A stretch of 64,000 nucleotides of DNA, taken from NCBI GenBank assembly GCA_018865545.1, contig GCA_018865545.1_3633.1. One strand, written 5' to 3'. Numbering within the stretch: the stretch's first letter is position 1; each line of letters starts with the position of its first letter. The notes under the pieces were generated by a model that saw nothing but the letters and a program-made list of their open reading frames with translations, was not told where the DNA came from and did not search any database. Source of the stretch: a phage. This document shows positions 13-57,640 of the stretch, in pieces. Both the position numbers and the translations under genes were made by a program.

Positions 13-708
13 TTGTGCATGTTTGACGGATCAGGCATCATGGGTTACGAATGGGCAAAAAACGGGTATAAAGTAATATGCCTTAACTATGATGATGCTG
101 ACCACGGCGGTTATGAAAGTATCCGAGTAAAACATAAAAATATAGAATACATTAATGTTTGGATAGATGACCAGTTTAACCCAACAGAGATAGGGATCTG
201 TAAGCCAAGTATTATATTCGCATTTCCACCATGTACTGACATGGCTGTTAGTGGTGCAGCGCATTTCGCAAGAAAAGCTGCAAAAGACCCTTTATTCCAG
301 ATAAAGGCTGTAAATACAGCAAAGGTGGCAGCAAGGTTGGCAGATGAATACGACTGCCCTTACATGATAGAAAATCCTGTTAGTGTTCTATCTTCTCTGT
401 GGCGTAAACCAGATCATTCATTTCATCCTTATGAGTACGGCGGGTATCTATCAGAGAATGATGTTCATCCGTTTTTTCCAGAATACATAAAACCCAGAGA
501 TGCCTACCCTAAGAGGACTTGTTTGTGGACAGGCAATGGTTTTAAGATGCCGGAGAAATTACCTGTCCCCGTGTTAAGAGGGTATTCTGAGCAGCACCTA
601 AAATTGGGTGGTAAATCAAAAAAGACAAAGGTTATAAGATCGTTAACCCCAAGAGGATTTGCCAAAGCTGTATTCCTATATAATGATTTTAGGAGGGCTG
701 GTGGATAA
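13..708 (+). CDS. Putative DNA (cytosine-5)-methyltransferase-like protein (may be 5'-truncated by window edge)
   Basis: 231 aa ORF; FDGSG near N-terminus (motif I-like), FPPCTDMAVSG with Pro-Cys (motif IV-like catalytic Cys), IENPV (ENV motif VI-like), in the order expected for C5-MTases. Confidence 0.45.
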   Translation: MCMFDGSGIMGYEWAKNGYKVICLNYDDADHGGYESIRVKHKNIEYINVWIDDQFNPTEIGICKPSIIFAFPPCTDMAVSGAAHFARKAAKDPLFQIKAVNTAKVAARLADEYDCPYMIENPVSVLSSLWRKPDHSFHPYEYGGYLSENDVHPFFPEYIKPRDAYPKRTCLWTGNGFKMPEKLPVPVLRGYSEQHLKLGGKSKKTKVIRSLTPRGFAKAVFLYNDFRRAGG

Positions 709-859
709 AAATGTCAAGATTCTCACAGGAACTAGTATTTCAGAATTAGAATTAAAGCTAAACACTTGGTTTAGAAAAGGTTACTGTATTTCAGGTGGTA
801 TATCTGTGTGTAATGGCTGGTATATGGCTGTAGTTACCAAACCCTTCTAAGGAGAAGAG

Positions 860-2860
860 ATGAAGATGACAAAATGGGGGGCTGGTGCATACTTTGAAGG
901 TGAGAACCCAAAAGCATTCCGACCTACAAAAAGTGGTGGTAAAGTGAATTATCAGAAAAAAGAAGAAGAAACTGTAGAGTCTGTCCTAGATAGTACAAGG
1001 ATCTTGGCTGTCCCCCAAATGGATATTAGTTTAGATGCAGCTAAGTACTTCAAGATCAGATCTGCAACAGATTTGAAAGACGGTACTACAGTGGTGGCAA
1101 CATATCTTCCATATTATGACAAATATGGGAAATTGACAGGGTACAAAAAACGAGACTGGACTGTTCCGAAAGAGAAAAAGGGGCATTTCTCTGTTGTTGG
1201 CACAGTAAAGGCTTCCTCTCAATTTTTTGGTCAACATGAGGCCTCTATGGGATCTGGTAAAAAACAGATCTTTATTGTTGAGGGGGAAGGTGATGTAACG
1301 GCTGGCTGGCAAGCTGGGTTTGAGTATATTAAATTCCTTCATAGCAATCCTAACACGTCACGTTCAGTACGTGAGTGGGCAAACAATGCTTTAAAAGGCA
1401 TCAAAGCAATTCAGGATGGGGAAGAGGTTTCTAATTGCCCGACATTACCTTTTATCGGGTTGAACTGTGGTACAGCCAATGCTGTGGATACATTCGCCCA
1501 CAACGAAAAGTTTATCAGGGAATATGAAAAGATTGTCCTTGGCTTAGACAATGATGAAGCCACAGCAAGGGAAAAAGAACACAGAATTAAGAAAGGTAAG
1601 GAAGCCACAGATGATGTCGCAGGTTTTTTACTGTCTGACAACATCTATGTTGCACGATACCCAAATGAGCGCAATGACCCAAATGGTGTTAAAGATATCC
1701 GGGATATTTACAAAAAAGGTAAATGGATGGATATCTGGAATATGTTTGCTAAAGCGCAGGATAAATATGTTCCAGACAAATTGATTGGGTTGGAGAGAAT
1801 ATCTATTGAAAATCTCCGTAAAAAGAAAAAAGATGGCGTTCCGTTGCCGTGCTTTCCTCGTTTGTATGAACTAACAAGAGGCCCACGAACAGGAGAATTG
1901 TGGACACTGACAGGCCCATCTGGAGCTGGGAAATCAACTTTCTCAAGAAAGATTGAGTATGCAATTATCGAGTACCTCCGTAACATGGATATTCCCCGAT
2001 TAGACGGTTGGAAAGAGAACGAGAAAATTGCAATTATTCGTCTAGAGGAGGATGAGGAGGAGTCTGTAAACAGCTTATATGCTGAGGAGCTAAAGATTGA
2101 CCCGAAAGCATTTGTTGCAGACCCAGAACAATTCCTTACCGATGAGCAGCACTTAGCTATACACCAACGATGGATTGCCGAAGATAAGGTTAAAATTTTC
2201 GATCACTTTGGTTCAATACCAACTGACCAATTACTACAAAAATTGAAACAGATGGTTTTCCTTGATGGGTGTAGATGGATTATCTTAGATCACTTATCGA
2301 TGGTGATATCAGGATTAAAATCCGATAACGAGCGAAGAGATTTAGATAACATCATGACGGAATTGGCTGCCTTCTGCAAAAAATATGACGTGTTTATCCT
2401 CAGTATCAGCCATATGAAGCGTAAAGAGATCCAGATTCCAAAAGACAAAGATGGTAATCTCTTACCGTTTTGGTATCCTGTGCGGAAAGAGGATCTCCGT
2501 GGGTCAGCAGCACTCGAACAGTTATCATGGGTTGTATTAGGTGTTGAACCTGAAGAACTCCCTGATCGCTCTCGTGGGCGTATTCGTAGCGTTGTAATGA
2601 AAAACCGTCCACATAAAAAATTAGGTATAGCGGATACTCTGATTATGGATGATAATGGTCAGTTTTCTGATGCGTCAGGATGGGTGTGGGAAGACAATAT
2701 GTTTAAACTCAACGGGGAGGTAATGCTAAGACCTAAATCAATGGTTCAAAGTTTAGAGCTTGAAACACCTGTGGGTAAAATTGCTGTTTCTGTTCCTCAA
2801 CAAGAACCTGCTGTTGTTATTGAGGAACCTGAAGATTTGGACAACGACACACCATTTTGA
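860..2860 (+). CDS. Bifunctional DNA primase/helicase (TOPRIM primase + DnaB-family helicase)
   Basis: 666 aa ORF; IVEGEGDVTAGWQAG (TOPRIM-like acidic motif), Walker A TGPSGAGKST, Walker B-like IILDHLS; RBS aaggagaag upstream of ATG. Confidence 0.8.
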   Translation: MKMTKWGAGAYFEGENPKAFRPTKSGGKVNYQKKEEETVESVLDSTRILAVPQMDISLDAAKYFKIRSATDLKDGTTVVATYLPYYDKYGKLTGYKKRDWTVPKEKKGHFSVVGTVKASSQFFGQHEASMGSGKKQIFIVEGEGDVTAGWQAGFEYIKFLHSNPNTSRSVREWANNALKGIKAIQDGEEVSNCPTLPFIGLNCGTANAVDTFAHNEKFIREYEKIVLGLDNDEATAREKEHRIKKGKEATDDVAGFLLSDNIYVARYPNERNDPNGVKDIRDIYKKGKWMDIWNMFAKAQDKYVPDKLIGLERISIENLRKKKKDGVPLPCFPRLYELTRGPRTGELWTLTGPSGAGKSTFSRKIEYAIIEYLRNMDIPRLDGWKENEKIAIIRLEEDEEESVNSLYAEELKIDPKAFVADPEQFLTDEQHLAIHQRWIAEDKVKIFDHFGSIPTDQLLQKLKQMVFLDGCRWIILDHLSMVISGLKSDNERRDLDNIMTELAAFCKKYDVFILSISHMKRKEIQIPKDKDGNLLPFWYPVRKEDLRGSAALEQLSWVVLGVEPEELPDRSRGRIRSVVMKNRPHKKLGIADTLIMDDNGQFSDASGWVWEDNMFKLNGEVMLRPKSMVQSLELETPVGKIAVSVPQQEPAVVIEEPEDLDNDTPF

Positions 2861-3054
2861 GAGAAAAAGAGGATACGTGTAAAATATGATGAGTTAGCTA
2901 TTCGTGTTGCCAAGGGGCTTGAGGGGTACATTCCCGCCAAGAGAAGCCCTTTGGCAAAGAAACATAAATCAAAAATAGGTAGTTTTCCACATAATCTATA
3001 ACCAACTAAGAGATGGGCGACGATACAGTCAAGCCCATCTTGAATAGGAGGAGT

Positions 3055-5094
3055 ATGAAAGGGCTTTTTGTCGGAGATAACGAAGCTGACGGATTATTAG
3101 AAGAGGCAACTAAATATCACTGCACACTTTTTAAAGAATATGCTGTAAATAACTGGGTGTTGTTTCTCGATCCTGCTCACAAGGAATACCAGAGTGCAGT
3201 TAATTTTGCACGCAGCAAAGAAGGTGTTAATTTACGTATCCTTTCTTATGATGATTTTTACTCTTGGTTGCAGACCGAGCCAAGAGGGATAGCAATACAT
3301 AACCTGTTCGGCTATGATTTACGTCTGTGGAAAAAACTTTCTGGGATTGAATATGACATGTTCAAAGACCCAAAATGTATGGGGACGATAGGTAATAAAC
3401 AGGTAAATCTTTACGACACTCTTTCAATGAGTCGTGTTCTTTACCCAGATCGCCCATTGCCTAATGGCTGCCCAGATTCTGTATTGAACCCTGTAACAGG
3501 AAAACGTGACAGGGTTGGGCCACACGGCTTATTGGCATGGGGTTATCGTGTAGCAAACAAGAAAGTGCAGATTGATGATTGGCGTAATCAGCCATTGTGG
3601 GAATATGTAAACCGTGTGTGGGAAGACGTTATCATTAACGAACTTGTGTGGAAAGCTCTTATTGATGAGTCAAATGGTACGCGATGGCCTGATGACAAGC
3701 AGTTTATGTACACTGATAAACCTCACGGGATGCACCAGATTAATTGGAAAAATGCATTACGTAGGAGAATGCTCACAGACTATTTGATGATAGAGCAAGA
3801 AATACAAGGCGTATACTTTAATCGGGAGGAGGCAGAAAAATTAAGAGATCGCATAGATAAGATGATGCGAGAAATTGAAGAAGAGGTAGAACCACTTCTT
3901 CCAAAAAAAGAGATGACGAAATCTCAACAACCAAAATTCCCAGCTAACCCTTTTGACACAGCGGGTAATATATCTCATCATGGGTGGAATTGGTTGGAAT
4001 ATAAACTTGGCTATCCTGTTAACAGGGAAGCTCTGGAGTTTAAAGCTCCACCAAAAACAGCTTTTAAGAGTAATGGGGATGTAAGTGCAGCAGGGGAGAG
4101 ATATTGCATCCAGAATGGCATTGAAGATCCGGCTTTATACGGTGATTTCATTCGTTCCCAGCGAACCAAAGAGAACACACTCGAACCTTTACCGCCAGAT
4201 CTTCTAGAGAAGGCTAAAGAAGACCTTCGAAACAGAAAAATGCCAGATTTAATGGTTCCAATGAAAATCTCTAATCAAGATGATATTAAAAAATATTTGA
4301 TCAAAGATGCTGGTTGGAAACCTACACTGTGGCGTGTAAAAGATGTTACTAAGGATCAATTTAAAAAGACTCGTGAAGATTCTGAAATTGATGTACTAGT
4401 TAAGAAGTACATAGAAGAGTTGGCAGAGTCTGAGTATAAATCTCTTATTCTTGACTACCTTAATGATTCAGATGAGAAATTCAACATTTCAGAGCGTAAG
4501 TTTGACCATCGCCATGCATCTGAAAGGGGTTATTCAGAGATATTTAAGAAATTTCGGCGTAAAGCACGCCAGTTACCGACATCTCCTCAATTAAAAGATA
4601 ATTTTGGGCATCTGTGTCCAAATTTGGAGAAAATTGATGTGCATATGGCAAAACAGATTGTTAAGTGGCTATCACTTCGTAACAGGCGATCTGTTTTAGA
4701 CCCAATGGATGAGGATAAGACGGATACAGGGTTATTAAATCACCCTCGTTTAGACATTGACGGAAAACTTCCAGCACGTTTTTCTGGAATCACTAACACG
4801 GGCAGGTGCAAGCATACTGTTTGCGCAAACATGCCCAAGCCTGATCCGAAGGTTTTGTTGGGAAAAGAAATGCGGGGTCTTTGGACAGTCCCTGAAGGCT
4901 ACTACCTGATGGGTTGTGATGGATCTAACTTAGAAGGTATGATTGCAGCGGCAGGGGCTTTTGAGTTTGATGGTGGTGAGTATTTACGTATCATGATGGA
5001 AGAGGATGCCCATGAACGAAACGCAAGAGCATACACAATAGCAGCAGGAAAGGAGGTAACACGCTCTGGAGGAAAGGGGGTTACGTATGGTTAA
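3055..5094 (+). CDS. DNA polymerase, family A (T7 gp5-like), exon 1 (exonuclease + N-terminal polymerase part)
   Basis: Start chosen at ATG 3055 after aggagg RBS; N-terminus LFVGDNEADGLLEEATKYHC and HGLLAWGYRV resemble T7 gp5; ends with RSGGKGVTYG (R-x3-K-x3-YG, first half of motif B) directly before in-frame TAA. Confidence 0.8.
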   Translation: MKGLFVGDNEADGLLEEATKYHCTLFKEYAVNNWVLFLDPAHKEYQSAVNFARSKEGVNLRILSYDDFYSWLQTEPRGIAIHNLFGYDLRLWKKLSGIEYDMFKDPKCMGTIGNKQVNLYDTLSMSRVLYPDRPLPNGCPDSVLNPVTGKRDRVGPHGLLAWGYRVANKKVQIDDWRNQPLWEYVNRVWEDVIINELVWKALIDESNGTRWPDDKQFMYTDKPHGMHQINWKNALRRRMLTDYLMIEQEIQGVYFNREEAEKLRDRIDKMMREIEEEVEPLLPKKEMTKSQQPKFPANPFDTAGNISHHGWNWLEYKLGYPVNREALEFKAPPKTAFKSNGDVSAAGERYCIQNGIEDPALYGDFIRSQRTKENTLEPLPPDLLEKAKEDLRNRKMPDLMVPMKISNQDDIKKYLIKDAGWKPTLWRVKDVTKDQFKKTREDSEIDVLVKKYIEELAESEYKSLILDYLNDSDEKFNISERKFDHRHASERGYSEIFKKFRRKARQLPTSPQLKDNFGHLCPNLEKIDVHMAKQIVKWLSLRNRRSVLDPMDEDKTDTGLLNHPRLDIDGKLPARFSGITNTGRCKHTVCANMPKPDPKVLLGKEMRGLWTVPEGYYLMGCDGSNLEGMIAAAGAFEFDGGEYLRIMMEEDAHERNARAYTIAAGKEVTRSGGKGVTYG

Positions 5095-5825
5095 TGATAG
5101 CCCCCTTACAAAGTAATTTGTAAGGTGCACCCATTGAATTGCTGGGAAGTCTGACCGAGTTATGTCGAAGATAATCAGCAGGTAAGCGAATGCTTCCCTC
5201 TTACAAAAGGAGGGAGAATATGAGTACATTTTGTTGTATAATCTGCGGTGAACAATGTGTTAAAACTGGTAAAAATCAAAAAGTATGTCTCTCTGAAGGT
5301 TGTAGAAGAGAATATTCAAAGATAAAAACCAGAGAATATAGACGCAGAAAGGCCGAAAGAGAAAATAGGCTTGACAGAGTTGGCATAGGAAAAGGTGGTG
5401 GGCAGCCTCGTGGGAAATTGTCCAAATTTTATAAAAATGGCATATCGATGTTTCGTAAGTTATCCCCTGTCATAAAGGAACAGAGAAGATACTGTAATAG
5501 ATGTAATAAAGATCTTCTTTATGCAGGTAAGGATGAGTGGTGCGTTCATCATATTGACCATGATAGGACGAATAACGAAATAAGTAATTTTGAATTACTT
5601 TGTAAAAAATGCCATCAAATAGAACATAAATGTTGGGAAGCATTCGAAACTTCAACGACTAGCCGAAAGGCGTAGGGCCAAGCGGTGAGGGAAACCTCCA
5701 GTCTTTCAGACTGCCGAAGCAGTGGGCATCCTGAAAAGGATGAAGATATAGTCTGATCTGCATAGAAATATGTAGCAGTTCCTAAGAGGACGGGCATGGT
5801 GTAGCGAGCCATGTTGAACAATATG
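5095..5825 (+). mobile_element. Group I intron interrupting DNA polymerase motif B, carrying an HNH endonuclease ORF
   Basis: Exon 1 ends in U (ggT), intron ends in G (5825); P-like gaattgctgggaag (5136-5149), Q-like aatcagcagg (5173-5182), R-like tcagactgcc (5706-5715), S-like aagatatagtctg (5743-5755); ORF lies between Q and R as in canonical ORF-containing group I introns; splicing would give ...GKGVTYG-IMYGAQAPKI..., matching pol A motif B. Confidence 0.6.
5190..5675 (+). CDS. HNH homing endonuclease (intron-encoded)
   Basis: 161 aa; CVHHIDHDRTNNEISNFELLCKKCHQIEH (HNH motif with Cys pairs); located inside intron between Q and R elements. Confidence 0.8.
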   Translation: MLPSYKRRENMSTFCCIICGEQCVKTGKNQKVCLSEGCRREYSKIKTREYRRRKAERENRLDRVGIGKGGGQPRGKLSKFYKNGISMFRKLSPVIKEQRRYCNRCNKDLLYAGKDEWCVHHIDHDRTNNEISNFELLCKKCHQIEHKCWEAFETSTTSRKA

Positions 5826-6458
5826 ATCATGTATGGAGCACAAGCTCCTAAGATAGCCGCAATGCTGGGTATCCCCCTTAATAGAGCACAGGCTGTAATA
5901 GACGCATTCTGGGATAGTAACTTCGGGTTGAAAATGCGTAGAGAGTGGTTAGAAAAATTCTGGGAGGCAAATGGGAGACGCTATATTCCAGGCATGGACG
6001 GGCGTAAAATTTGGACTCGTTCTAAACATTCTCTGCTGAATGCTTACCAACAAAACGGTGGTGCTTCATTGTTTGACCTCATGGGAGTCCTGTTCCATTG
6101 GGAATTGGTGAAACGGGGATGGTACGACCAAGGTGTCAGGAGGGTTATCTACTACCACGATGAGATACAGGTACAAGTACCGGAAAGATTTAAATCAATA
6201 ACGGAGCATTCTAACTTAGAGGCTGCACAAAGCTATGTAGACATGATGCTTGAAAAAGGCCATCGTTTCGACGGGCATTATGTGAAAGCAGGTAAAGTTA
6301 TTGTTGAACCTGATGTGTATGGGAAATACAGGATACTGCATTGCCCAGTAGGAGAGCTTGCAACAAAATGTGTAGAAAAAGCATCTAAGATAATGGGACT
6401 TCCCGTTTTAATTACAGGAGAATATCTTTGTGGATACACATGGGCAGATTCCCACTGA
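5826..6458 (+). CDS. DNA polymerase, family A, exon 2 (C-terminal polymerase part)
   Basis: In-frame continuation IMYGAQAPKIAAMLGI (second half of motif B), VIYYHDEIQVQV (motif C HDE); upstream in-frame stop at 5802 shows it is not an independent long ORF. Confidence 0.75.
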   Translation: MMYGAQAPKIAAMLGIPLNRAQAVIDAFWDSNFGLKMRREWLEKFWEANGRRYIPGMDGRKIWTRSKHSLLNAYQQNGGASLFDLMGVLFHWELVKRGWYDQGVRRVIYYHDEIQVQVPERFKSITEHSNLEAAQSYVDMMLEKGHRFDGHYVKAGKVIVEPDVYGKYRILHCPVGELATKCVEKASKIMGLPVLITGEYLCGYTWADSH

Positions 6459-7068
6459 TGAAGTAGAGGAAATTTGGAAGGATATCGTAGGGTATCCTGA
6501 TTATCAAGTAAGTAATTATGGAAATGTAAGATCTTTTAAATCAGGAATGTGGAAATACTTAAAAACTAAAAGTGAAAATTTATCTCCACAATGCTATCCG
6601 AGCGTGTGCTTGTACAAAAGGGGTAAAGATTCAGGGAAAAGTTTTTCAGTCCATAGACTTGTAGCGGAGGCTTTTAAAGAGCCTCCTTCTCCAGAATTGC
6701 AGAAAGAATGTAGAAAAACTGTGCTAGGAGTTCCAATTATAAACCACATAGATGGTGACAGACATAATAATAGGGTTGAAAATCTTGAGTGGTGTACCTA
6801 TAGCCATAACAATACAGTGGCTTATGGTATGGGGAGAATCCAAAAATTTGGTGATGATTATCATTTATCTGTTCTTACAAAGGAGAAAGTTTTAGAGATT
6901 GTACGGCTTATTGATTGTGGGATAACACACAAAGCTATTGCGGAACTATTCGGAGTTTCCAGAAATACAATATCTTCTTTAAATAATGGATACTCATGGT
7001 CACATGTCACAGGAAGACCTAAGAAAGTCCAGAAAAGAAGATCAAAAACAGACCCTATATCAGAGTAA
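6430..7068 (+). CDS. Free-standing HNH homing endonuclease (HNH_3/NUMOD-type)
   Basis: 212 aa; WKDIVGYPDYQVSNYGNVRS N-terminus, HRLVAEAF...INHIDGDRHNNRVENLEW core, C-terminal HTH-like ITHKAIAELFGVSRNTISS; overlaps 3' end of DNA polymerase. Confidence 0.75.
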   Translation: MDTHGQIPTDEVEEIWKDIVGYPDYQVSNYGNVRSFKSGMWKYLKTKSENLSPQCYPSVCLYKRGKDSGKSFSVHRLVAEAFKEPPSPELQKECRKTVLGVPIINHIDGDRHNNRVENLEWCTYSHNNTVAYGMGRIQKFGDDYHLSVLTKEKVLEIVRLIDCGITHKAIAELFGVSRNTISSLNNGYSWSHVTGRPKKVQKRRSKTDPISE

Positions 7069-7078
7069 GGTAAAAATA

Positions 7079-7450
7079 ATGAAAGTAAAAGGAACCAAGA
7101 CAACAACACAACTTATTGATGTTGAAGTAAACGACTCTGAAATCAAAAGAATCATAGATAGCCAAGACAAAATAATCTTGGCAGAAGCAATTCAACAAAA
7201 ACTTTTAAACAAATTCTTCAAAAGATGCCTACCTTCAATAGACGGAGAGATTATCGTAAGAAAGGACGCTAAGGCTGGCAATAGAGGAACACGGGTCTTC
7301 GTCCATGTTGATGCCGATTGGGATTACCATAATAATGTTGGTGTGGATAAAGAAATCAGGCCATTGACACACGGAGAGATTGTGCTGTATGAGAACATCC
7401 GAAAGCTACCTGAGTATATAATGTCGTTGGATGCTGAATTGGCTAATTAA
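7079..7450 (+). CDS. Hypothetical protein
   Basis: ORF; start moved to internal ATG 7079 (MKVKGTK...) just after HNH stop. Confidence 0.45.
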   Translation: MKVKGTKTTTQLIDVEVNDSEIKRIIDSQDKIILAEAIQQKLLNKFFKRCLPSIDGEIIVRKDAKAGNRGTRVFVHVDADWDYHNNVGVDKEIRPLTHGEIVLYENIRKLPEYIMSLDAELAN

Positions 7451-7516
7451 GAACACTTGCTATAGGCAATCTGTTTGTGTATCATTTCGCTACCTGACAC
7501 TTTGTGGAGAATTTCT

Positions 7517-7936
7517 ATGAGAAATGTAAAGATACATGCAATACCAAGTGACTATTTATCACCCCCTGTACAAGGGAGTTCCTTCTGTACAGACATGGTT
7601 TCTTACGATGACTACAAGAAACTGGAGGGTATGTTCATTGACGTAGCATCAGAAAATGCACTCCTAAAGAAGTTCATTCGTGAGAGTTGTTATGTTTTTG
7701 ATGGGGAACAATCTGATATCTCTGATGCATATACCCCAGCAGATCAATCACTTTTAATGCCTGGTTTGGAAGCCACACAGAAGTTTTCTACAGAGATGAT
7801 GGCTCAAGGTGTTCATATGTACGGTATGCTCACAATCCGTATCGGAGAGCAGGAGCAAGAAGAAAGCATCATCTATGCGGGAAAGCAAGCCCTTCTTTAT
7901 GCAGAACAACTTCGTAATGGAGATTTCGAACAATGA
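7517..7936 (+). CDS. Hypothetical protein
   Basis: ORF; start at ATG 7517 preceded by ggaga; C-terminal region resembles C-terminus of ORF 11228-11683 (QGV-M ... LR-G pattern). Confidence 0.45.
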   Translation: MRNVKIHAIPSDYLSPPVQGSSFCTDMVSYDDYKKLEGMFIDVASENALLKKFIRESCYVFDGEQSDISDAYTPADQSLLMPGLEATQKFSTEMMAQGVHMYGMLTIRIGEQEQEESIIYAGKQALLYAEQLRNGDFEQ

Positions 7937-8427
7937 ATTTTGATATTACAAAGCTACATGTCTTACTACAAAGTTTTTACCTTTCTTACGATGCTTGGGT
8001 AAAAAGAGGAGCACCAGACTCTGATATTTTCTCTCGTGACTGCGGTTTGTGTGCTAATTTATATGATTGGTGTAATGTGAATCATTTGTCCGGCTACATG
8101 GATGACCTACTGGACATGCTGCATGATGATTTCGAAAAGGCGGGGCTAGATAAAAGATTGCCTTTCAACCAGACAAGCCCCTATAGTAGAGAAATGTTTA
8201 AAAATACTTGCCATAAGAACAAAGAACGCTTGCAATGGGTACAAGACAATATAGATTTGTTCAAGAAGGAGCAAGGAGCTTTAAGAAATAAGTATGAAAC
8301 TTTGAGCGACGCTGCTAAAATGGTTGTGTATACATGGGCAAGTGCGGACAGTAAACAATTTAAAGCAAGTATGGATAAAAGCGTCCCTGTATTACGAGAT
8401 ATTCTGTTCAATGAGGGGGAATCATGA
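7933..8427 (+). CDS. Hypothetical protein
   Basis: 164 aa ORF, start overlaps previous stop (ATGA), operon-like packing. Confidence 0.5.
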   Translation: MNFDITKLHVLLQSFYLSYDAWVKRGAPDSDIFSRDCGLCANLYDWCNVNHLSGYMDDLLDMLHDDFEKAGLDKRLPFNQTSPYSREMFKNTCHKNKERLQWVQDNIDLFKKEQGALRNKYETLSDAAKMVVYTWASADSKQFKASMDKSVPVLRDILFNEGES

Positions 8428-8738
8428 AAACCTTTACAAAAGAGCAGCTACTTAAGCATGTTCGCTCTAATGTTGACCATCTGAAAGACCTCCAACAGCG
8501 TGTTGGTGAGGCTGGAGATGAGTATAAGAAGATTTTTGACATGGTATCTCTTGATTTGGAGATTGCTAAGATCGCATTAAATGCATTAGAAGCAAAACCG
8601 ATTGGTGCTTTCCATATCGCAGAGCAGCAAGTCGATGGTACAAGCGATTATATCAAAGATGGGGAATGGCCCATTGATAACGGAACAATTGAAGTGTACA
8701 CTTCACCACTTGCTTTTACAAAGAGTAGCCGATATTAG
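8424..8738 (+). CDS. Hypothetical protein
   Basis: 104 aa ORF, ATGA overlap with upstream gene. Confidence 0.5.
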   Translation: MKTFTKEQLLKHVRSNVDHLKDLQQRVGEAGDEYKKIFDMVSLDLEIAKIALNALEAKPIGAFHIAEQQVDGTSDYIKDGEWPIDNGTIEVYTSPLAFTKSSRY

Positions 8739-8792
8739 ATAATTTACCAAAAATGGGTTTCTTTGGCATATTTTTCACAAATGGTTCTTATT

Positions 8793-9662
8793 ATGAAAGA
8801 TAAAGTTTTTGTTCCGCCTATAAAATCGCAAGGGATTAAGACTAAACTGGTTCCGTGGATAAAGAGAATTGTTCCTAAAAACTTTAATGGGGTATGGGTC
8901 GAGCCGTTTATGGGGACTGGAGTTGTTGCCTTTAACGTTGCTCCTAAAGATGCATTATTATGTGATACAAACCCTCATTTGATTTCTTTTTATAATGCAT
9001 TGAAAAATAAAGATATAACAGGGGATCTTGTTAAGGATTTTTTATATCGTGAAGGTGAAAAACTCTTATTAAGTAATGGTGAGTATTATTATGAAGTCAG
9101 GGAAAGGTTTAATAATTACAAGGAACCTTTAGATTTTTTATTCTTAAATAGGTCTTGTTTTAATGGTATGATTAGGTTTAATAGTAAAGGAGGGTTTAAT
9201 GTTCCTTTTTGTAAAAAACCAAACAGATTTGCACAAGCATATATTACCAAGATTTCGAATCAAGTTGATAGGATTTCTGAAATAATATCAAAAGGGAACT
9301 ATACATTCTTGTGTCAGTCATTTGAAAAAACTATTGGCATGGTAAATAGGGATGATGTTGTTTATTGTGATCCTCCATATATTGGTAGGCATGTTGATTA
9401 TTTTAATTCATGGGGAGAGCGTGACGAGCGTTTATTATTTGAAACGTTATCATCTTTGAATGCTACATTTATAACGTCTACGTGGCATCATAATGATTAT
9501 AGGGAAAATAAGTACGTTCGTGATTTATGGTCATCTTTTAGAATATTGACGAAAGAACATTTTTATCATGTTGGAGCGTCCGAAAAAAACAGATCCCCGA
9601 TGGTAGAGGCGCTAATTACAAATATCAATTACTTACCCCAGGCTGAAGCTGCGAAATGTTGA
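8793..9662 (+). CDS. dam: DNA adenine (N6) methyltransferase, Dam-like
   Basis: [11 protein letters not shown] (FxGxG AdoMet motif) and VVYCDPPY (DPPY catalytic motif); start placed at MKDKVF; gene visibly more AT-rich than neighbours. Confidence 0.75.
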
Positions 9663-9680
9663 GATTAAGGTGAAATAGTT

Positions 9681-10052
9681 ATGACCACTATTACCAAAGA
9701 ACGTCTGCTGACAATCAAGCAATGGCGCGAAACATACGGACTAGGTAGCAACGTTGTACTGCCAGCAGAAGAAGCGCAAGAACTGGCTCGAATTGCTCTG
9801 GCATCGCTGGAAACAGAGCCTGTAGCATGGATGTGTGAGGACGCAGATGGTCGTGAGTATAACGCTCGCAATGAATTTTCTGGTGGGAGGAAAGGAACCC
9901 CACTCTACACCTCTCCTAACGTGCAGGTAGTGCCGGAAGAAATGTATTGGCAGGATGCGCCAGTTGAAGGCAGCAGCAAAGCGGCTGCATACGCTACAGG
10001 CTGGAATGCCTGCCGCGCCGCTATGCTCAAAAAGAAGGGGATGAATCAATGA
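9681..10052 (+). CDS. Hypothetical protein
   Basis: 123 aa ORF in co-directional early block. Confidence 0.45.
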   Translation: MTTITKERLLTIKQWRETYGLGSNVVLPAEEAQELARIALASLETEPVAWMCEDADGREYNARNEFSGGRKGTPLYTSPNVQVVPEEMYWQDAPVEGSSKAAAYATGWNACRAAMLKKKGMNQ

Positions 10053-10291
10053 CTTGGCCTGAAGCATTCACAACGGTAGGGGTTGTAATGGCTGTAGCCT
10101 TTGCAGTGTACTCAGTTTGTCGATGGGGGTGATGATGATAAAAGAACAACTAGGGAATGATACTCAAAAATCACGTTTTCAGCAGTGGTTGGAACAACAA
10201 CATGACCAGATTGATGTGGATTGTGGTTGTGTTTCTATTGAAACATTCATGTATTGGTTACAAGTGGCGTATGAGGCAGGAGGAGATTTAA

Positions 10292-10678
10292 ATGAGCAAT
10301 GGTTATCAACCTGTCATCTCGGAAATGACTAATGTTGCGCTTCCACCTTCGTCACCAAGCCTTAAAGCAGCAACCCAACAACCAGTTGCTTGGCGCTATC
10401 GTTATGTAAAACAGGGAAATCTGTGGACTGGTGACTGGAAATATGTCCCAACAAAAGAAGATTGTAACGACAGACCAAACTACGAAATTCAGGCGTTATA
10501 CACCACACCTGTAACTTTAGAAGGTTTGTCTAAAGCAGTGCGCTTCTATGAACAGGTTAAGCGTGAAAATCCACCAGTCGAAACAGGGGCATGGAAAGAT
10601 GCTATTGACTGGATACTCAAAGAGGCATATGATGTGGTAAATAAAACCACACAGGACTTATCGAGTTATGAAAATTGA
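10292..10678 (+). CDS. Hypothetical protein
   Basis: 128 aa ORF. Confidence 0.45.
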   Translation: MSNGYQPVISEMTNVALPPSSPSLKAATQQPVAWRYRYVKQGNLWTGDWKYVPTKEDCNDRPNYEIQALYTTPVTLEGLSKAVRFYEQVKRENPPVETGAWKDAIDWILKEAYDVVNKTTQDLSSYEN

Positions 10679-10997
10679 TTACCAAAAATTACGTAAGCTA
10701 GCGGAGATAGCAAGAGATGGTGGTACTTATCAAGAAATAACTGACTACCGTACTATGGCCACACCTCAGCTTGTGCTGGCATTAATTGAAGAAATTGAAG
10801 ATCAAGGCAAACGTATTGCAGATCTGGAGGCACGGATAGTAGATCTTCCTCAACGGTTGCAACCTGGTGCTGATGGTTATGATGATTGGTATATGCACAG
10901 CGCAGATGATGGTGAATATTTCAAAGCCGATGAGGTTATCGCGGCAATCTACGCCGCTGGCATTCGCCTCAAGGAGGCAACCAGTGAGCGGAATTAA
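10668..10997 (+). CDS. Hypothetical protein, paralog A of a tandem pair
   Basis: 109 aa; IDYQKLRKLAEIARDGG...ATPQLVLALIEEIEDQGK shared with downstream ORF. Confidence 0.5.
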   Translation: MKIDYQKLRKLAEIARDGGTYQEITDYRTMATPQLVLALIEEIEDQGKRIADLEARIVDLPQRLQPGADGYDDWYMHSADDGEYFKADEVIAAIYAAGIRLKEATSERN

Positions 10998-11235
10998 TTA
11001 CCAAGCACTGCGTGAGGCGGCGCAGAACGCGAAAGATTTAGGTGGGATTAAGAATTACAAGCGAGGCGAGCAAGCTGTTGCCGAATTTGAGTCCTTGATA
11101 ACACCACACATTGTGCTGGCGCTACTGGATGAAATTAAGAAGTTAGAAGACACAAATATTGACGCCATGTGTCAAATTGCAGAACTCAAAACTAATGTCA
11201 AGTTATTGAAGGAAGGGGTAACTAGCCATGACTGA
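10984..11235 (+). CDS. Hypothetical protein, paralog B of a tandem pair
   Basis: GTG start 10984 after aaggagg RBS; INYQALREAAQNAKDLGG...ITPHIVLALLDEIKKLED parallels upstream gene. Confidence 0.45.
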   Translation: MSGINYQALREAAQNAKDLGGIKNYKRGEQAVAEFESLITPHIVLALLDEIKKLEDTNIDAMCQIAELKTNVKLLKEGVTSHD

Positions 11236-11683
11236 GAAATCGGTGCATATTGATGAAATCAAACGTCTTGGTGCTAAATGTGCAACTCTTTTAGAAGAGA
11301 AATACCATGATAAAAAGAAAATCTCCGAACTTGCGACTCGTTGTGCAGAGCTAGTCGCTGAAAATATAGTGCTGCACAGGGCAATTAAAGCTGTCCACAA
11401 TGTTGCTGATAACTCCAGTGGGGTTGCCGATTGGCATTTGAATGGCGATATCTCTGCATGGGAAGAGGTTCTTCCTGAAATTTATGATATCAAAACCCCA
11501 GCTACCGATGCTTTCCTGGCTGAAGTACGGGCGCAGGGCGTGGAGATGCTGGCAAAAAATCATCAGAGTATCGTCAATGCACTTAAGGGAGATTCTTTAT
11601 TTTCTGATGGTGAAAACCGACATGCAGCTATTGTTTCCGCAGCCGTATATTTCGCCGCAGAGCTTCGCAAAGGGGGTGAGTAA
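11228..11683 (+). CDS. Hypothetical protein
   Basis: 151 aa ORF. Confidence 0.45.
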   Translation: MTEKSVHIDEIKRLGAKCATLLEEKYHDKKKISELATRCAELVAENIVLHRAIKAVHNVADNSSGVADWHLNGDISAWEEVLPEIYDIKTPATDAFLAEVRAQGVEMLAKNHQSIVNALKGDSLFSDGENRHAAIVSAAVYFAAELRKGGE

Positions 11684-11864
11684 TGCGTGTGGCATGTATC
11701 GGCCTGTTACCGTATCCGATTCGATTTTGGGCATCTGCGCCAATTGCAAATCCGAATATCCTGATGGCTGACAACATCATCTCGGCACAGAAGCGCCATA
11801 CCGGTATTGCAGCGGCACGACGAGCAGCCAAGAAACGCAGAAAGTCAAAACATAAGAGGAAATA

Positions 11865-12030
11865 ATGAAAGAAATATTATTTGCATTCATATTTGCACTT
11901 GTAAGTGTTCCTGTGGCGATGGTTATGGCTGGTTTACCAGTTCATAAAGGGCTGCTTTTTGCGGGGCATATAGGAGCTTTTGTCATAGGTTTGCTCACTT
12001 GTCTACAGGTGGTTGCTAAAGATGTGTAAA
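11865..12030 (+). CDS. Small hydrophobic membrane protein (54 aa)
   Basis: Below ORF-track cutoff; ATG after aagagga RBS; MKEILFAFIFALVSVPVAMVMAGLP...GAFVIGLL has two hydrophobic segments. Confidence 0.4.
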
Positions 12031-13892: not shown

Positions 13893-14249
13893 ATGATGTC
13901 TTTTTTAGAGTGGGTCCAGGTGCATAATAACTGGTTCCCTGCTTTATCGTTTTATGTGTTGTGTTCTATTTGGGCTTTCATTTTATCGTATAAAGGGACA
14001 TGGAAACACGTTGTTGTCTCTTTTGTTATGTTCGTTATTCTTGGGGCAACAACTATTAACTACTTTCTCCTTTACGAGGATGGCTACAAAGAGTACACAA
14101 AAAACTGGGAATCGTGCACAACACAAAAAGCATTGGATGAAATGTATGTCTTCGATAATGTAAAAGAGAAATGTATGAAGCCTGTTGTTGGCTTTGTACC
14201 AACAGAGAGCGTAGATATACTGGAAATTAAAAATGGAGATTGGACATGA
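13893..14249 (+). CDS. Hypothetical membrane protein
   Basis: 118 aa; two hydrophobic segments (WFPALSFYVLCSIWAFILS, VVSFVMFVILGATTINYFLL). Confidence 0.45.
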   Translation: MMSFLEWVQVHNNWFPALSFYVLCSIWAFILSYKGTWKHVVVSFVMFVILGATTINYFLLYEDGYKEYTKNWESCTTQKALDEMYVFDNVKEKCMKPVVGFVPTESVDILEIKNGDWT

Positions 14250-49572: not shown

Positions 49573-49922
49573 CGTTTTTGTTCAGATAAGATCGCTACTC
49601 TTATCCCGCACCACTACGTGCTGCTGCATGTCACCATGCAGATCAGACTATATCTTGTGTGTTATTACACACCCCCCCTGTTTCGGCGGTTGATAATCAA
49701 CCGGAGGTTTCCCTCACCGCTTGGCCCTAACGCCCGTAAGCGATAGTCGTTGAACGTTCATCCCGTAGGGATGCTTCGCTGCGGATTGTCTAAACATTCA
49801 CACTGTTACTATACTCAACGTCATTACCGTTGACCATAAATATGTTACCATACCTACTTAGTGGTGATATGTATAAAGAGTTACCCGTCAATTAAAGGGG
49901 TTTATAGAGAGCACACTGTTCT
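49573..49922 (-). mobile_element. ORF-less group I intron in terminase gene
   Basis: Minus-strand P AAUUGACGGGUAAC (revcomp of 49880-49893), Q AAUCCGCAGCGAAG (49774-49787), R GUUCAACGACUAUCG (49741-49756), S AAGAUAUAGUCUGAUCUG (49636-49650); preceding exon ends in U, intron ends in G. Confidence 0.5.
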
Positions 49923-49955
49923 ACCCTCATCGAAACCTATAAAGGTATATTGCAA
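49923..49955 (-). CDS. terL: Terminase large subunit mini-exon (Walker B region), inferred
   Basis: Minus-strand frame LQYTFIGFDEG, hydrophobic run plus DE = Walker B-like, in frame with exon starting 49572 to give ...FIGFDEG-TQFTWSQIDYL...; bounded by intron-like sequence on both sides. Confidence 0.4.
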
Positions 49956-53935: not shown

Positions 53936-54008
53936 TGTGACGGACAGGGTTCGAACCTGTGACCACCTAGTCTTCAGCAAGGCACTCTACCAACTGAGTT
54001 ACCGTCAC
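53936..54008 (-). tRNA. tRNA-Phe (GAA)
   Basis: Acceptor GTGACGG/CCGTCAC, D arm ACTC-AGTTGGTA-GAGT, anticodon loop CTGAAGA, T arm ACAGG-TTCGAAC-CCTGT; CCA encoded. Confidence 0.8.
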
Positions 54009-54016
54009 ATGATTGG

Positions 54017-54090
54017 TAGGCGATGAGGGACTCGAACCCCCAAAATTCAGGTTCTAAGCCTGACATGTATACCAATTCCATCAATCGCCC
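54017..54090 (-). tRNA. tRNA with anticodon UAG (Leu by anticodon) but short variable arm, atypical
   Basis: Acceptor GGGCGAT/ATCGCCT (G1-U72), anticodon stem TCAGG/CCTGA, loop CTTAGAA, 5 nt variable region, T arm GGGGG-TTCGAGT-CCCTC; CCA encoded. Confidence 0.5.
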
Positions 54091-54104
54091 ATTTATATCA
54101 ACAG

Positions 54105-54296
54105 TTATGGTTTTCCACGATACACAGAAATAGTTTTCCCATTGGCATTGATAACATAAGCTGTCTGATCCTCAGACAAAAACACTTTTTGGTCAATACC
54201 TGAAATAGCTATAGACTTTTGATGAGCACAATACCCAACAATTTTCCCACAAAAAATTTGTTCATCATTTGGAGATACGACTTTAACTGTTAACAT
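54105..54296 (-). CDS. Hypothetical small protein within tRNA cluster
   Basis: Start moved to internal ATG 54296 because the annotated N-terminus overlaps tRNA-Pro. Confidence 0.3.
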   Translation of the reverse strand: MLTVKVVSPNDEQIFCGKIVGYCAHQKSIAISGIDQKVFLSEDQTAYVINANGKTISVYRGKP

Positions 54297-54341
54297 GGTA
54301 TCCTCTGTACATTTCTGCTTTGATATGTATATGTTTGTTGG

Positions 54342-54416
54342 TCTGTCCGGTTGGATTTGAACCAACGACCTGATCATCCCAAGTGACCCGCGCTACCCAA
54401 GCTGCGCTACGGACAG
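54342..54416 (-). tRNA. tRNA-Pro (UGG)
   Basis: Acceptor CTGTCCG/CGGACAG, D arm GCGC-AGCTTGGGTA-GCGC, anticodon stem GGTCA/TGATC, loop CTTGGGA, T arm GTTGG-TTCAAAT-CCAAC; CCA encoded. Confidence 0.8.
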
Positions 54417-54503
54417 AGAAATGTAGATTTTAATTGTCCCAGAATCTACTAACTGGTATCGCTGGCTAGGTGATATCTGTGACTTGATTAAGTCAAGAAT
54501 TGG

Positions 54504-54591
54504 CGGTTCCTGAAGGATTCGAACCTTCGGTGGGGAGATTCCTCCCAACGGCTTAACAGGCCGTCACCATCGACCACTCGGTCAAAGAACC
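54504..54591 (-). tRNA. Type II (long variable arm) tRNA with anticodon GUU (Asn by anticodon), atypical
   Basis: Acceptor GGTTCTT/AGGAACC, 3 bp D stem with GAGTGGTCGA loop, anticodon stem ACGGC/GCCGT, loop CTGTTAA, variable hairpin GGGAG-GAAT-CTCCC, T arm GAAGG-TTCGAAT-CCTTC, discriminator G, CCA encoded. Confidence 0.5.
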
Positions 54592-54603
54592 AGAATATTT
54601 TGG

Positions 54604-54677
54604 TGGATCTGGTTAGATTCGAACTAACAATCCCTCGATTAAAAGTCGAGTGCCTTAAACCATTTGGCTACAGATCC
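54604..54677 (-). tRNA. tRNA-Lys (UUU)
   Basis: Acceptor GGATCTG/CAGATCC, anticodon stem CTCGA/TCGAG, loop CTTTTAA, T arm GTTAG-TTCGAAT-CTAAC; CCA encoded. Confidence 0.75.
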
Positions 54678-54907
54678 TTTAAATTATCTTTAAAATAGCT
54701 AATTACTCGCACATAATTAGCTATACGCAACAGCCCTCTAGGGAGGGCACACTAATGATAGATTACGATTACATGACCATCATGAGTGTTTGACTTACGC
54801 CAGTAAAGAGCGGACTGCTCTGGGGTATCGGTAAAGTGGTTACCGCCACTTGCCGAAGATTTACTCTGCTAAAGTAAGAATAACAAGCTACATTAAAGAT
54901 AACTTGG

Positions 54908-54993
54908 AGGAGGCTGACAGAATCGAACTGTCACCATATCTCTACAGCGGGACTGGGTTCAAACCAGCTTGTGCACCATGCACCCCAGCCTCC
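54908..54993 (-). tRNA. tRNA-Ser (UGA), type II, atypical D arm
   Basis: Acceptor GGAGGCT/AGCCTCC, anticodon stem GCTGG/CCAGT, loop TTTGAAC, long variable region, T arm GACAG-TTCGATT-CTGTC; D region forms a tight GTGCA/TGCAC hairpin; CCA encoded. Confidence 0.55.
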
Positions 54994-55074
54994 AAAAATT
55001 GCCTCTGCCGAGAATATACACCCAACAAAGACGGCGCTCAGGTCCGAAGAAATCTGAGCCTTGACATACAGTGG

Positions 55075-55165
55075 AGGAAGATGCCAGACTTGAACTGGCA
55101 CACCCATTTCTGGGTTACTATCTCCTTAGCAGGGAGACCCCTTACCAAATTAGGGTTAATCTTCC
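55075..55165 (-). tRNA. tRNA-Ser (GCU), type II
   Basis: Acceptor GGAAGAT/ATCTTCC, anticodon stem TCTCC/GGAGA, loop CTGCTAA, long variable arm, T arm GCCAG-TTCAAGT-CTGGC; CCA encoded. Confidence 0.65.
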
Positions 55166-55189
55166 AATACCTTAGTAATTAAAAACTGG

Positions 55190-55276
55190 CGGAGAAGGAG
55201 AGAATCGAACTCTCAAGCCGTTTTACCAGTCAGCACATTTCCAATGTGTTTTCGTCGCCAATCGATTTGCTTCTCC
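55190..55276 (-). tRNA. tRNA-Ser (GGA)-like, type II, tentative
   Basis: Acceptor GGAGAAG/CTTCTCC, T arm GAGAG-TTCGATT-CTCTC, candidate anticodon loop TTGGAAA with imperfect stem; CCA encoded; D arm not well resolved. Confidence 0.45.
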
Positions 55277-55288
55277 GTTTTAACTTGG

Positions 55289-55361
55289 CAGGGGATGGTT
55301 GATTCGAACAACCGATCACGGGGTCAAAGCCCGTTGCATTAGGCCACTATGCTAATCCCCT
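55289..55361 (-). tRNA. tRNA-Gln (UUG)
   Basis: Acceptor AGGGGAT/ATCCCCT, D arm GCAT-AGTGGCCTA-ATGC, anticodon stem ACGGG/CCCGT, loop CTTTGAC, T arm GGTTG-TTCGAAT-CAACC; CCA encoded. Confidence 0.8.
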
Positions 55362-55365
55362 TTTG

Positions 55366-55444
55366 CACGAGAGTGAGGAATCGAACCTCTTAGTCACTGG
55401 TTTTGGAGGCCAGCCTTCACCCAGTGAAGTTACGCTACTCTCAT
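55366..55444 (-). ncRNA. tRNA-like sequence, unassigned
   Basis: Acceptor-like pairing ATGAGAG/CTCTCGT and T arm GAGG-TTCGATT-CCTC, but central region forms a long CACTGG/CCAGTG helix instead of canonical D and anticodon arms. Confidence 0.3.
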
Positions 55445-55450
55445 TAAAAA

Positions 55451-56008
55451 CTATTTTCGGAAAGGACTTATGAAAAATGCCAACATCACTCTCTCTCTTG
55501 AAAAAGCTCTGTCTTCAGGAACCACACTCTTCAGTTTCCAACCGACATAAATTCGCCAGTAAAATTGTTTTCCAAACAATCTAAAAGACGGGACAAACGC
55601 GAATACACCCCACGCATTGTCATTCCACATCAACAAATAGCCTTGTTGATTATCCTCCACATCAGAGCTTACATGGATGTTTCCTTTCCACTTTGTCACA
55701 GATGTGATTTCACGTCCAAGTGCGTGATAGGAGAAATTGTAGGCTTTATTTCTCCACAACCAAGCAACTCGTTGCAGATAAACACCAAAACTCCCTATCT
55801 TACGAACTTCTGCCCATCTCTCTATGTGTCCTTTATCACCATCTATAGGATTATCATATGTTTCCATCCACCTGAAAATATAAGGTAGATGCCCTGTCTT
55901 CTCATTATAGAACGGAACAACAAAAGGAGCCAGAATAACACAGAGAACCGACATAACTGGGTCAAGAGGTGCTAACAGAATCCACGATAAATATTTCAAG
56001 TATCTCAT
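55451..56008 (-). CDS. Hypothetical membrane protein
   Basis: 185 aa; N-terminal hydrophobic helices (LSWILLAPLDPVMSVLCVILAPFVVPF); Trp-rich. Confidence 0.45.
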   Translation of the reverse strand: MRYLKYLSWILLAPLDPVMSVLCVILAPFVVPFYNEKTGHLPYIFRWMETYDNPIDGDKGHIERWAEVRKIGSFGVYLQRVAWLWRNKAYNFSYHALGREITSVTKWKGNIHVSSDVEDNQQGYLLMWNDNAWGVFAFVPSFRLFGKQFYWRIYVGWKLKSVVPEDRAFSRERVMLAFFISPFRK

Positions 56009-56235
56009 GCAGGATCAAGCCTAGATATAATGTACTGGTTTAAATCTGAATATGGGAAGATACTTTCAAAGATAACCTGTTTAAATCTGAAACCGCACAA
56101 ACCGAAAAGTACCTTCTGACACTCCCCAAAAGAACAATCTTTACCAACTTTTATCACAACCGTATCGGCAACCTGCACACTTTCTATCTCTTTAGGTTCA
56201 TGATGCCGTACTATGATTACTTTAGAAACCATCAT
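56005..56235 (-). CDS. Hypothetical protein
   Basis: 76 aa ORF overlapping downstream gene start by 4 nt. Confidence 0.4.
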   Translation of the reverse strand: MMVSKVIIVRHHEPKEIESVQVADTVVIKVGKDCSFGECQKVLFGLCGFRFKQVIFESIFPYSDLNQYIISRLDPA

Positions 56236-56363
56236 ACTCGTCCGTATTAAAGCCTTCTACTATAGATAGTAGATGTCTAGGGTTGGACCGCAAACTCAAC
56301 CCCATGGAATTTGTTACGGTCTTCAGTTGACCCAAGCGGATTTCATTGACATCTTTTAACTGG

Positions 56364-56435
56364 AGCATCCAGAGGGTATCGAACCCTCGACTACAGCTTG
56401 GAAGGCTGTAGTTTTCCCAATTAAACTATGGATGC
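56364..56435 (-). tRNA. tRNA-Gly (UCC)
   Basis: Acceptor GCATCCA/TGGATGC, D stem GTTT/AAAC, anticodon stem ACAGC/GCTGT, loop CTTCCAA, T arm GAGGG-TTCGATA-CCCTC, discriminator U as expected for Gly; CCA encoded. Confidence 0.8.
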
Positions 56436-56443
56436 ATATTTGG

Positions 56444-56516
56444 TGGGAGTGGTAGGCTCTGCCCCTACGTCCTCTCGATTATCGGTCGAGCGATCTACTA
56501 ACTGATCTACACTCCC
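56444..56516 (-). tRNA. tRNA-Ile (GAU) with unusual T loop
   Basis: Acceptor GGGAGTG/CACTCCC, D arm GATC-AGTTAGTA-GATC, anticodon stem CTCGA/TCGAG, loop CCGATAA, T stem GTAGG/CCTAC but loop GGCAGAG lacks TTC; CCA encoded. Confidence 0.6.
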
Positions 56517-56587
56517 AAACTGTACTGACCCAACAACCACGATTGGAGGGTATCGTCACACATCAAAGCCAGTACAGATTCAGTTGG

Positions 56588-56674
56588 TGTGCCGTGATAG
56601 AGTCGAACTACCCGAGTCCCTTTCGAGACAGGAGATTTACAGTCTCCCCCGCTACCCCTACGGTCTAACGACAC
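56588..56674 (-). tRNA. tRNA-Tyr (GUA), type II
   Basis: Acceptor GTGTCGT/ACGGCAC, anticodon stem GGAGA/TCTCC, loop CTGTAAA, long variable arm, T arm GGTAG-TTCGACT-CTATC; CCA encoded. Confidence 0.65.
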
Positions 56675-56675
56675 A

Positions 56676-57635: not shown

Positions 57636-57640
57636 ATTGG

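Follow-up and report, generated by a model that had tools for sequence, protein, structure and literature searches.

Capture of a methylase from a resident restriction-modification (R-M) plasmid by a virulent phage is an already known phenomenon. According to Hill et al. (1991, cited in PMC4190342), the virulent lactococcal phage phi50 took the LlaI methylase domain from plasmid pTR2030; in 936-type lactococcal phages, orphan methyltransferases (MTases) confer protection from HphI and DpnII (PMC4190342). For the Vequintavirinae, the BASEL study reported that these phages are 'exceptionally susceptible' to R-M systems and that EcoRV is especially potent, with the suggestion that its blunt ends are hard to repair (PMC8594841).

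Here we analyze a 64,000-nt stretch of phage DNA (contig GCA_018865545.1_3633.1, referred to as the window) from a virulent Avunavirus (Vequintavirinae), an rV5-like myovirus. The window carries two MTase-like genes, a divergent C5-cytosine-MTase-like open reading frame (ORF) at its left edge (ORF1) and a Dam-like ORF at 8763-9662 on the + strand. Both lie where a preliminary description of this DNA had placed them, and they differ in origin. The explanation that we favor, with a probability of about 0.8, is that the Dam-like gene encodes M.EcoRV captured from a plasmid, with which the phage would methylate its own GATATC sites against EcoRV, while ORF1 encodes a divergent C5-MTase-like protein.

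The locus resembles phi50 and pTR2030, as that pair is described in the citing paper, in that a virulent phage took a methylase, or a functional part of one, from a resident R-M plasmid with identical sequence. The host here is E. coli, the phage an rV5-like myovirus and the enzyme of another class. Whereas phi50 became resistant to the R-M system concerned, protection of the window phage is a prediction from sequence; conversely, the junction microhomologies, the spread over phage backbones and purifying selection can be read from the sequence in the window case. We found no report in the literature of M.EcoRV in a phage or in Avunavirus. The case is unusually clear: the donor can be named as the textbook EcoRV plasmid, with 99.5% identity, the sequence can be followed through both junctions, and the cassette has spread under purifying selection within a clade represented in at least eight assemblies.

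Identity of the Dam-like gene

The Dam-like ORF encodes a D12-class (alpha) N6-adenine MTase. It matches PF02086 (5.5e-63, positions 2-252 of 253 in the profile) and TIGR00571 (5.7e-81, 272 bits against a cut-off of 114.85, positions 2-267 of 267), and it contains an N-terminal FxGxG motif (FMGTG) and a C-terminal DPPY motif, as the preliminary description had read them. It falls short of the cut-off of the E. coli Dam equivalog NF008152 (104.9 bits versus 441). The natural start is most likely the ATG at 8793 (MKDKVF), as in M.EcoRV, giving a 289-aa ORF at 8793-9662 (+ strand); gene callers also use an alternative ATG at 8781.

The segment at 8746-9625 (+ strand), comprising 47 nt upstream of ecoRVM and codons 1-278, is common to EcoRV plasmids. 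It is identical at 876 of 880 nt to plasmid pSCU-484-3 and 99.4% identical to pLG13 (NC_005019), the original EcoRV plasmid, and on six small plasmids from complete E. coli genomes it matches a gene annotated 'DNA adenine methylase' at 99.3-99.5% identity. These donor-type plasmids are of the ColE1/Mbe kind, 6.3-11.5 kb in size, and are carried by 6 of 5,426 complete E. coli genomes; in PLSDB the gene occurs on five mobilisable plasmids, pLG13 among them. On the plasmids the methylase gene divergently adjoins a helix-turn-helix (HTH; C-protein) gene and a gene annotated 'type-2 restriction enzyme EcoRV', whose product is R.EcoRV (match to PDB 1eo3 at 1e-167 over all 245 residues). Given this neighbor and the near-identity of the methylase genes, we therefore assign the Dam-like gene of the window, by sequence, to ecoRVM, the EcoRV modification methylase.

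Residues 1-278 of the phage protein are identical to the common plasmid allele WP_001570854, and the sole difference from pLG13 is W22C. The protein is not full-length M.EcoRV (298 aa), as residues 279-298 are swapped for 11 phage-derived residues (279-289) followed by a phage-derived stop; an exact match to the resulting 289-aa protein is on record (WP_115447828.1 / EHP9877542.1). The structural relatives of the methylase are DpnM, EcoDam and T4Dam, and the structure of DpnM (284 aa) aligns up to query residue 278. Since both the family models and the DpnM alignment stop at about residue 277-278, the conserved fold is intact and only the non-conserved tail has been exchanged. Because residues 1-278, which hold the whole catalytic and DNA-recognition part, are identical to those of M.EcoRV, the expected target of the phage enzyme should be GATATC and not the GATC of true Dam; the specificity, which the preliminary description had left as unknown, can thus be predicted for this gene.

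R.EcoRV and C.EcoRV were searched for by tblastn across the 64 kb and neither was found, apart from the first 8 C codons inside the captured segment; the methylase is an orphan in the window. The phage copy shares with M.EcoRV of pLG13 and its relatives 99.4-99.5% DNA identity over 880 nt and the order of motifs, FxGxG then DPPY. It differs in being solitary within a virulent phage genome, in having 11 phage-encoded residues instead of the C-terminal 20, and in retaining a native promoter region cut to about 45 nt. The phage orphan Dams (T4 Dam, T2, T1 and P1) and E. coli Dam share its fold and family (PF02086, TIGR00571), but its identity to the phage Dams is about 30% or less and its expected target is GATATC rather than GATC.

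Origin and junctions of the captured segment

The preliminary description had noted that the Dam-like gene is more AT-rich than its neighbors and had suggested horizontal acquisition, and both points are borne out. The GC content is 0.332 for the methylase gene and 0.325 for the captured segment, compared with 0.398 and 0.458 for the flanks and 0.317 for the plasmid R-M block. In a windowed calculation 8746-9625 is the lowest-GC 880-bp window of the 64 kb (z = -3.1; mean 0.403, sd 0.025). At the DNA level the methylase gene has no match among 50,697 phage records, where the best tblastn match is 48% identical, and it is not present in the closest phages Av-05 and 18-1-2 and their relatives.

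The insertion is bounded on both sides by remnants of displaced phage ORFs. The stretch at 8721-9649 stands in for about 350 bp of Av-05 and 18-1-2 that contain two tiny ORFs, Av05_00125 and Av05_00124. On the left, a three-way sequence comparison delimits a stretch at 8721-8745 (+ strand) that diverges from Av-05; its last letters, ATAATTTACC, are what is left of the beginning of Av05_00125 (ATGTTCAATAATTTGCC). Phage sequence runs up to ATAATTTACCA, the remnant of ATGTTCAATAATTTGCCA at the Av05_00125 start, and plasmid sequence runs from AAAATGGG, with a microhomology of ACC at 8746-8748 common to phage and plasmid. On its opposite strand, the upstream part of the captured segment also holds the beginning of the annotated C/HTH gene (8 codons). 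On the right, the junction at 9618-9633 (+ strand) reads ACAAATATCAATTACT, 16 nt identical to Av05_00124 (positions 14033-14048 of Av-05), and the microhomology ACAAATAT at 9618-9625 forms both the end of the plasmid homology and the first 8 nt of these 16. The methylase frame continues past this junction for 11 phage-derived codons to the stop at 9660-9662. A remnant of the 3' end of Av05_00124, which is mostly deleted, followed by an intergenic stretch, occupies 9634-9680 (+ strand), and the next gene is a DUF551-like ORF at 9681-10052.

Taken at the level of sequence, identity, origin, direction and junction anatomy show a horizontal acquisition from plasmid to phage. The capture would have taken place in an infected, plasmid-bearing E. 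coli, from a pLG13-type mobilisable ColE1 plasmid, by illegitimate, microhomology-mediated recombination, with ACC serving as the left and ACAAATAT as the right microhomology. It would have displaced the two tiny phage ORFs without bringing along the genes for the endonuclease and the C protein or the bulk of the native promoter. Scans for the left and right junctions gave 0 matches in IMG/VR and JGI metagenomes, and the right junction also gave 0 in GTDB genomes.

As only about 45 nt of native upstream sequence are kept, the native promoter was probably lost. A candidate sigma-70 promoter-like site, TTTACA-17-GATAAT, lies at 8715-8743 (+ strand), matches the consensus at 10 of 12 positions, has the best score in 8000-10200 and ends 3 nt before the shared segment. 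Its -35 hexamer is phage sequence common to Av-05, and its -10 hexamer lies inside the 25 nt that are not in Av-05. The captured methylase would thus presumably be expressed from phage signals, either this junction site or read-through along the + strand operon.

Recurrence of the cassette and constraint on its sequence

Exact-protein look-ups of the two genes flanking the methylase recovered seven further contigs of the lineage, from one NCBI E. coli assembly (82 kb), two ENA metagenome assemblies (79 and 70 kb) and four Logan assemblies. They range from 3 to 82 kb and come from differing samples and assemblers, with coverage of up to 23x. All seven have the same order of a 104-aa ORF, the methylase and the DUF551-like ORF. 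The left junction is identical over 90 nt in each of them, and the right junction is identical in five and has one SNP in the other two. The content of HNH genes differs between the window and the further contigs.

Compared with the window, the insert of the further contigs differs at 0-3 of 880 nt, whereas the backbone differs at 19-27 of 1621 positions on the left and at up to 44 of 1151 on the right; the exception is L010, a contig that matches the window without any difference. The low divergence of the insert against the higher divergence of the backbone indicates that the cassette is younger than the backbone divergence. Either the cassette has moved between related phages via recombination in its flanks, or the backbones have been reshuffled around it.

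Six substitutions have arisen in the ORF since capture (positions 8906, 8972, 9128, 9416, 9551 and 9633) and all are synonymous, an outcome with a neutral probability of about 7e-5, given 20% synonymous sites. Judged from these substitutions and from the contig comparison, the methylase cassette has been kept under purifying selection while spreading over the diverged backbones of the clade.

One of the carriers (L007; NCBI GCA_003360955.1, QGXP01000105.1, 82,179 bp) is a virulent-type phage contig within the assembly of an E. coli isolate, and the methylase WP_115447828.1 is listed under E. coli, which points to a carrier state or to contamination in the culture that was sequenced.

Restriction sites and predicted protection from EcoRV

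GATATC is not avoided in the window, with 33 sites against 34.6 expected under a Markov model, or about 0.5 per kb, which extrapolates to about 60 sites per genome of about 120 kb. The density is the same in relatives that lack the methylase (8-9 sites per 18 kb), and the EcoRV plasmids contain no GATATC site. Avoidance of restriction sites in the window is extreme; among the 64 palindromic hexamers, 20 are absent from the 64 kb, including (Markov expectation in parentheses) AAGCTT (23), GAATTC (14), CTGCAG (13.5), CAGCTG (9.7), TCCGGA (6.9) and AGCGCT (6.7). AGGCCT and TGGCCA are nearly absent and GATC is moderately depleted (216 versus 304 expected); AT-rich palindromes as well as GATATC, GGATCC and AGATCT occur at expectation.

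In the mechanism that we propose, the enzyme would methylate, at N6, the first adenine of each GATATC site while the phage DNA replicates, so that progeny would leave any host already modified and would resist R.EcoRV at their next entry. Methylation of GATATC by the C-terminally altered enzyme, and with it protection from EcoRV, is thus predicted from the identity of residues 1-278. An anti-restriction role would fit the unavoided GATATC sites, the purifying selection and the spread of the cassette across backbones.

The assignment to M.EcoRV turns an orphan 'Dam-like' methylase into a concrete case with a donor, a mechanism, a predicted target (GATATC) and a predicted resistance (EcoRV), in which a phage group that mostly avoids restriction sites would have filled a gap where avoidance failed. 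For phage therapy and host range, it predicts that this rV5-like clade should plate on EcoRV-bearing E. coli where its relatives would not.

A divergent C5-cytosine-MTase-like protein

ORF1 occupies 1-708 on the + strand, with its stop at 706-708 and its 5' end outside the window, where about 11 codons are missing. Frame 1 is already open at the first base, and in Av-05 the orthologue, a 246-aa protein annotated 'DNA methyltransferase', begins another 33 nt upstream; the TTG at 13, from which the ORF is listed as 13-708, is therefore a listing artefact. ORF1 matches PHROG 757, 'DNA methyltransferase', at 8e-87, and it contains the motifs FDGSG, PPC and ENP. Of the C5-MTase signature given in the preliminary description, the overall resemblance and the PC motif (here PPC) stand, and the fold agrees with them, while the motif given there as ENV reads ENP. 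The residues F19-G21-S22-G23 (motif I), P87-P88-C89 (motif IV, with the catalytic Pro-Cys) and E135-N136-P137 (motif VI) do not vary among 35 homologues, so that motif VI has Pro in third place where the C5-MTase motif has Val (Glu-Asn-Val); R-S-L-T-P-R-G is invariant as well. The family comprises 4,690 proteins at E <= 0.001, mostly of 225-250 aa, and includes Seunavirus and other Vequintavirinae relatives; ORF1 is an ancestral, widely conserved phage gene.

The assignment to C5-cytosine MTases draws on weak sequence matches and on a structural model. PF00145 is weakly matched by 20 of the 35 homologues (best 1.3e-6). The Av-05 orthologue has no match in Pfam or NCBIfam, and a profile of the 35 sequences found nothing in the PDB. 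The AlphaFold model (pLDDT, the predicted local distance difference test score, 88) best matches C5-cytosine MTases and shows the fold of their catalytic domain, and its viral structure matches are named cytosine methylases; one of the best structural matches is a C5-carboxymethyltransferase. About 180-190 of the approximately 246 residues align to the catalytic domains of enzymes of 290-350 aa, and no separate target-recognition domain is evident. Compared with the C5-cytosine MTases of PF00145 (M.HhaI, M.HaeIII and DNMT3), ORF1 is shorter and falls below Pfam thresholds, and its identity to solved enzymes is 10-16%. The putative cytosine methylase of Certrevirus CB7 offers a comparison system, since the Certrevirus 'cytosine methylase' was assigned similarly, via the same HHpred-type match, 3QV2 (PMC7344957). 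By fold and catalytic motifs, ORF1 most likely encodes an S-adenosylmethionine-dependent cytosine-C5 DNA-modifying enzyme with a catalytic Cys (PPC) and Glu (ENP).

Alternative explanations

Several observations weigh against the explanation that we favor. The last 20 residues of M.EcoRV are replaced, which makes the activity of the altered enzyme a prediction, and only about 43-47 nt of native upstream sequence are kept. The junction promoter is a consensus match only, and the number of such sites in 8000-10200 is not above the shuffled expectation. The rarity of EcoRV plasmids (6 of 5,426 complete E. coli genomes) implies that the selective pressure would be local or episodic. As for ORF1, the window protein has no sequence match in Pfam, NCBIfam or, by phmmer, the PDB, and it has no recognizable target-recognition domain. 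The BASEL Vequintavirinae were reported to lack effective protection from the tested R-M systems (PMC8594841); should their genomes encode ORF1 homologues, which many Vequintavirinae have, ORF1 would not be broadly protective.

The captured methylase might be an inactive or neutral passenger, its C-terminus replaced or its promoter lost, that persists only because it is recent. The loss of the 20 C-terminal residues and the retention of about 45 nt of upstream DNA would agree with a passenger, and the very low divergence of the insert is compatible with a recent event. We nevertheless consider it unlikely. The window and seven further contigs, with backbones that differ by 1-4%, all have an intact ORF encoding the identical protein, none of the six substitutions changes an amino acid (P about 7e-5), the junction falls exactly where the conserved Dam-family fold ends, and 33 target sites are unavoided. 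The enzyme could instead be active and confer a benefit other than protection from EcoRV, for example by regulating phage expression or replication or by acting, through relaxed specificity, against other defences that overlap GAT or are sensitive to methylation. M.EcoRV is related to Dam, with an overlapping substrate specificity described (PMC4417163), and complete E. coli genomes seldom include an EcoRV plasmid. E. coli hosts, however, already supply Dam, and the gene is 99.5% identical to one of the EcoRV system; since it comes straight from that system, the donor host necessarily carried R.EcoRV at capture. With the cognate endonuclease as the simplest selective agent, such a different benefit appears improbable.

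Readings that dispute the capture itself fare worse. Mis-joining of plasmid reads into a phage contig might be suspected from a low-coverage contig (L005; ENA ERZ4239850 NODE_31821, 3452 bp, coverage 2.7), which contains plasmid mob, R.EcoRV, C and M, crosses the phage-type right junction within the methylase and continues into the phage right flank. Its alleles are plasmid-type at 8749 and 8776 and phage-type at 8906 (A, as in L009 and L011) and 9551 (G), placing a switch between 8776 and 8906; judged against L009 and L011, both 8906A and 9128G belong to the phage alleles. Either the 880-bp repeat gave rise to a chimera during assembly, or L005 is a genuine cointegrate that arose by homologous recombination; the 880 bp that the phage shares with EcoRV plasmids would make homologous recombination with them possible during infection. 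For the window itself, the overlaps at the junctions are only 3-8 nt, too short for an assembler to cross, both junctions recur in seven contigs and the frame runs cleanly into its phage-derived tail; overlaps this short and recurrences that are independent speak decisively against an artefact, which we hold to be very improbable. It is hardly credible that the genus had the gene from its ancestor and that it then disappeared from Av-05 and its relatives, or that the plasmids obtained it from phages. The bare pattern of presence and absence would allow this, but the gene is 99.5% identical to the plasmids while the phage backbone is about 96% identical to its nearest relatives, its GC content is like that of the plasmid R-M block as a whole, the shared sequence breaks off within the C gene on one side and within the 3' end of M on the other, and remnants of both displaced Av-05 ORFs flank the insert.

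Plasmid capture of M.EcoRV followed by self-methylation thus remains our preferred explanation. Taken jointly, that L005 is a real phage-plasmid cointegrate, or that the short ORF1 protein, with no evident target-recognition domain and with a C5-carboxymethyltransferase among its best structural matches, acts other than by ordinary sequence-specific DNA methylation, seems doubtful to us. If real, the cointegrate would be a virulent phage carrying, and potentially transducing, a complete EcoRV system and a mobilisable plasmid.

Genomic context

The first 10 kb of the window are about 96% identical to Escherichia phage Av-05 and likewise to four relatives, 18-1-2, 19-1-2, 24-2-1 and TH18. The gene order is ORF1, a small ORF, a primase/helicase gene, an interrupted family-A DNA polymerase gene with HNH endonuclease genes, and small early genes. 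The polymerase gene is split into 3013-5094 and 5811-6458, with an HNH endonuclease ORF at 5190-5675 in between. An Rfam scan of the interruption (5095-5810) found no group I intron; spliced HNH-containing introns in the polymerase have been reported for the related Certrevirus. Av-05 has an additional 845-bp HNH insertion (L001 10159-11002) relative to window position 6157/6159, and 18-1-2 has a 929-bp insertion in the primase/helicase gene (L002 6506-7433; window 2502/2507), which is annotated as one long coding sequence and may be an intein. A free-standing NUMOD4 / HNH_3 / HTH homing endonuclease gene at 6430-7068 overlaps the end of the polymerase gene. This gene is a mobile element and is polymorphic in the clade, being present in some lineage contigs and not in 18-1-2, L008, L012 or L016.

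Small DUF551 / Ea22 / EaA-like early genes lie at 8424-8738 and 9642-12000. At the DNA level they are 87-97% identical to prophage genes, of lambdoid and Stx-converting types, that occur across thousands of E. coli genomes, which indicates that this group of virulent phages and the temperate lambdoids have exchanged genes. A further small indel within this hypervariable early-gene run is the ORF Av05_00127 (about 265-280 bp; L001 13256-13534), which Av-05 and 18-1-2 have and the window lacks (at 8411-8416). Elsewhere in the window, 14 tRNA genes are clustered at 53936-59518 on the - strand, and a group I intron match lies at 49624-49950, also on the - strand (Rfam RF00028, 66 bits).

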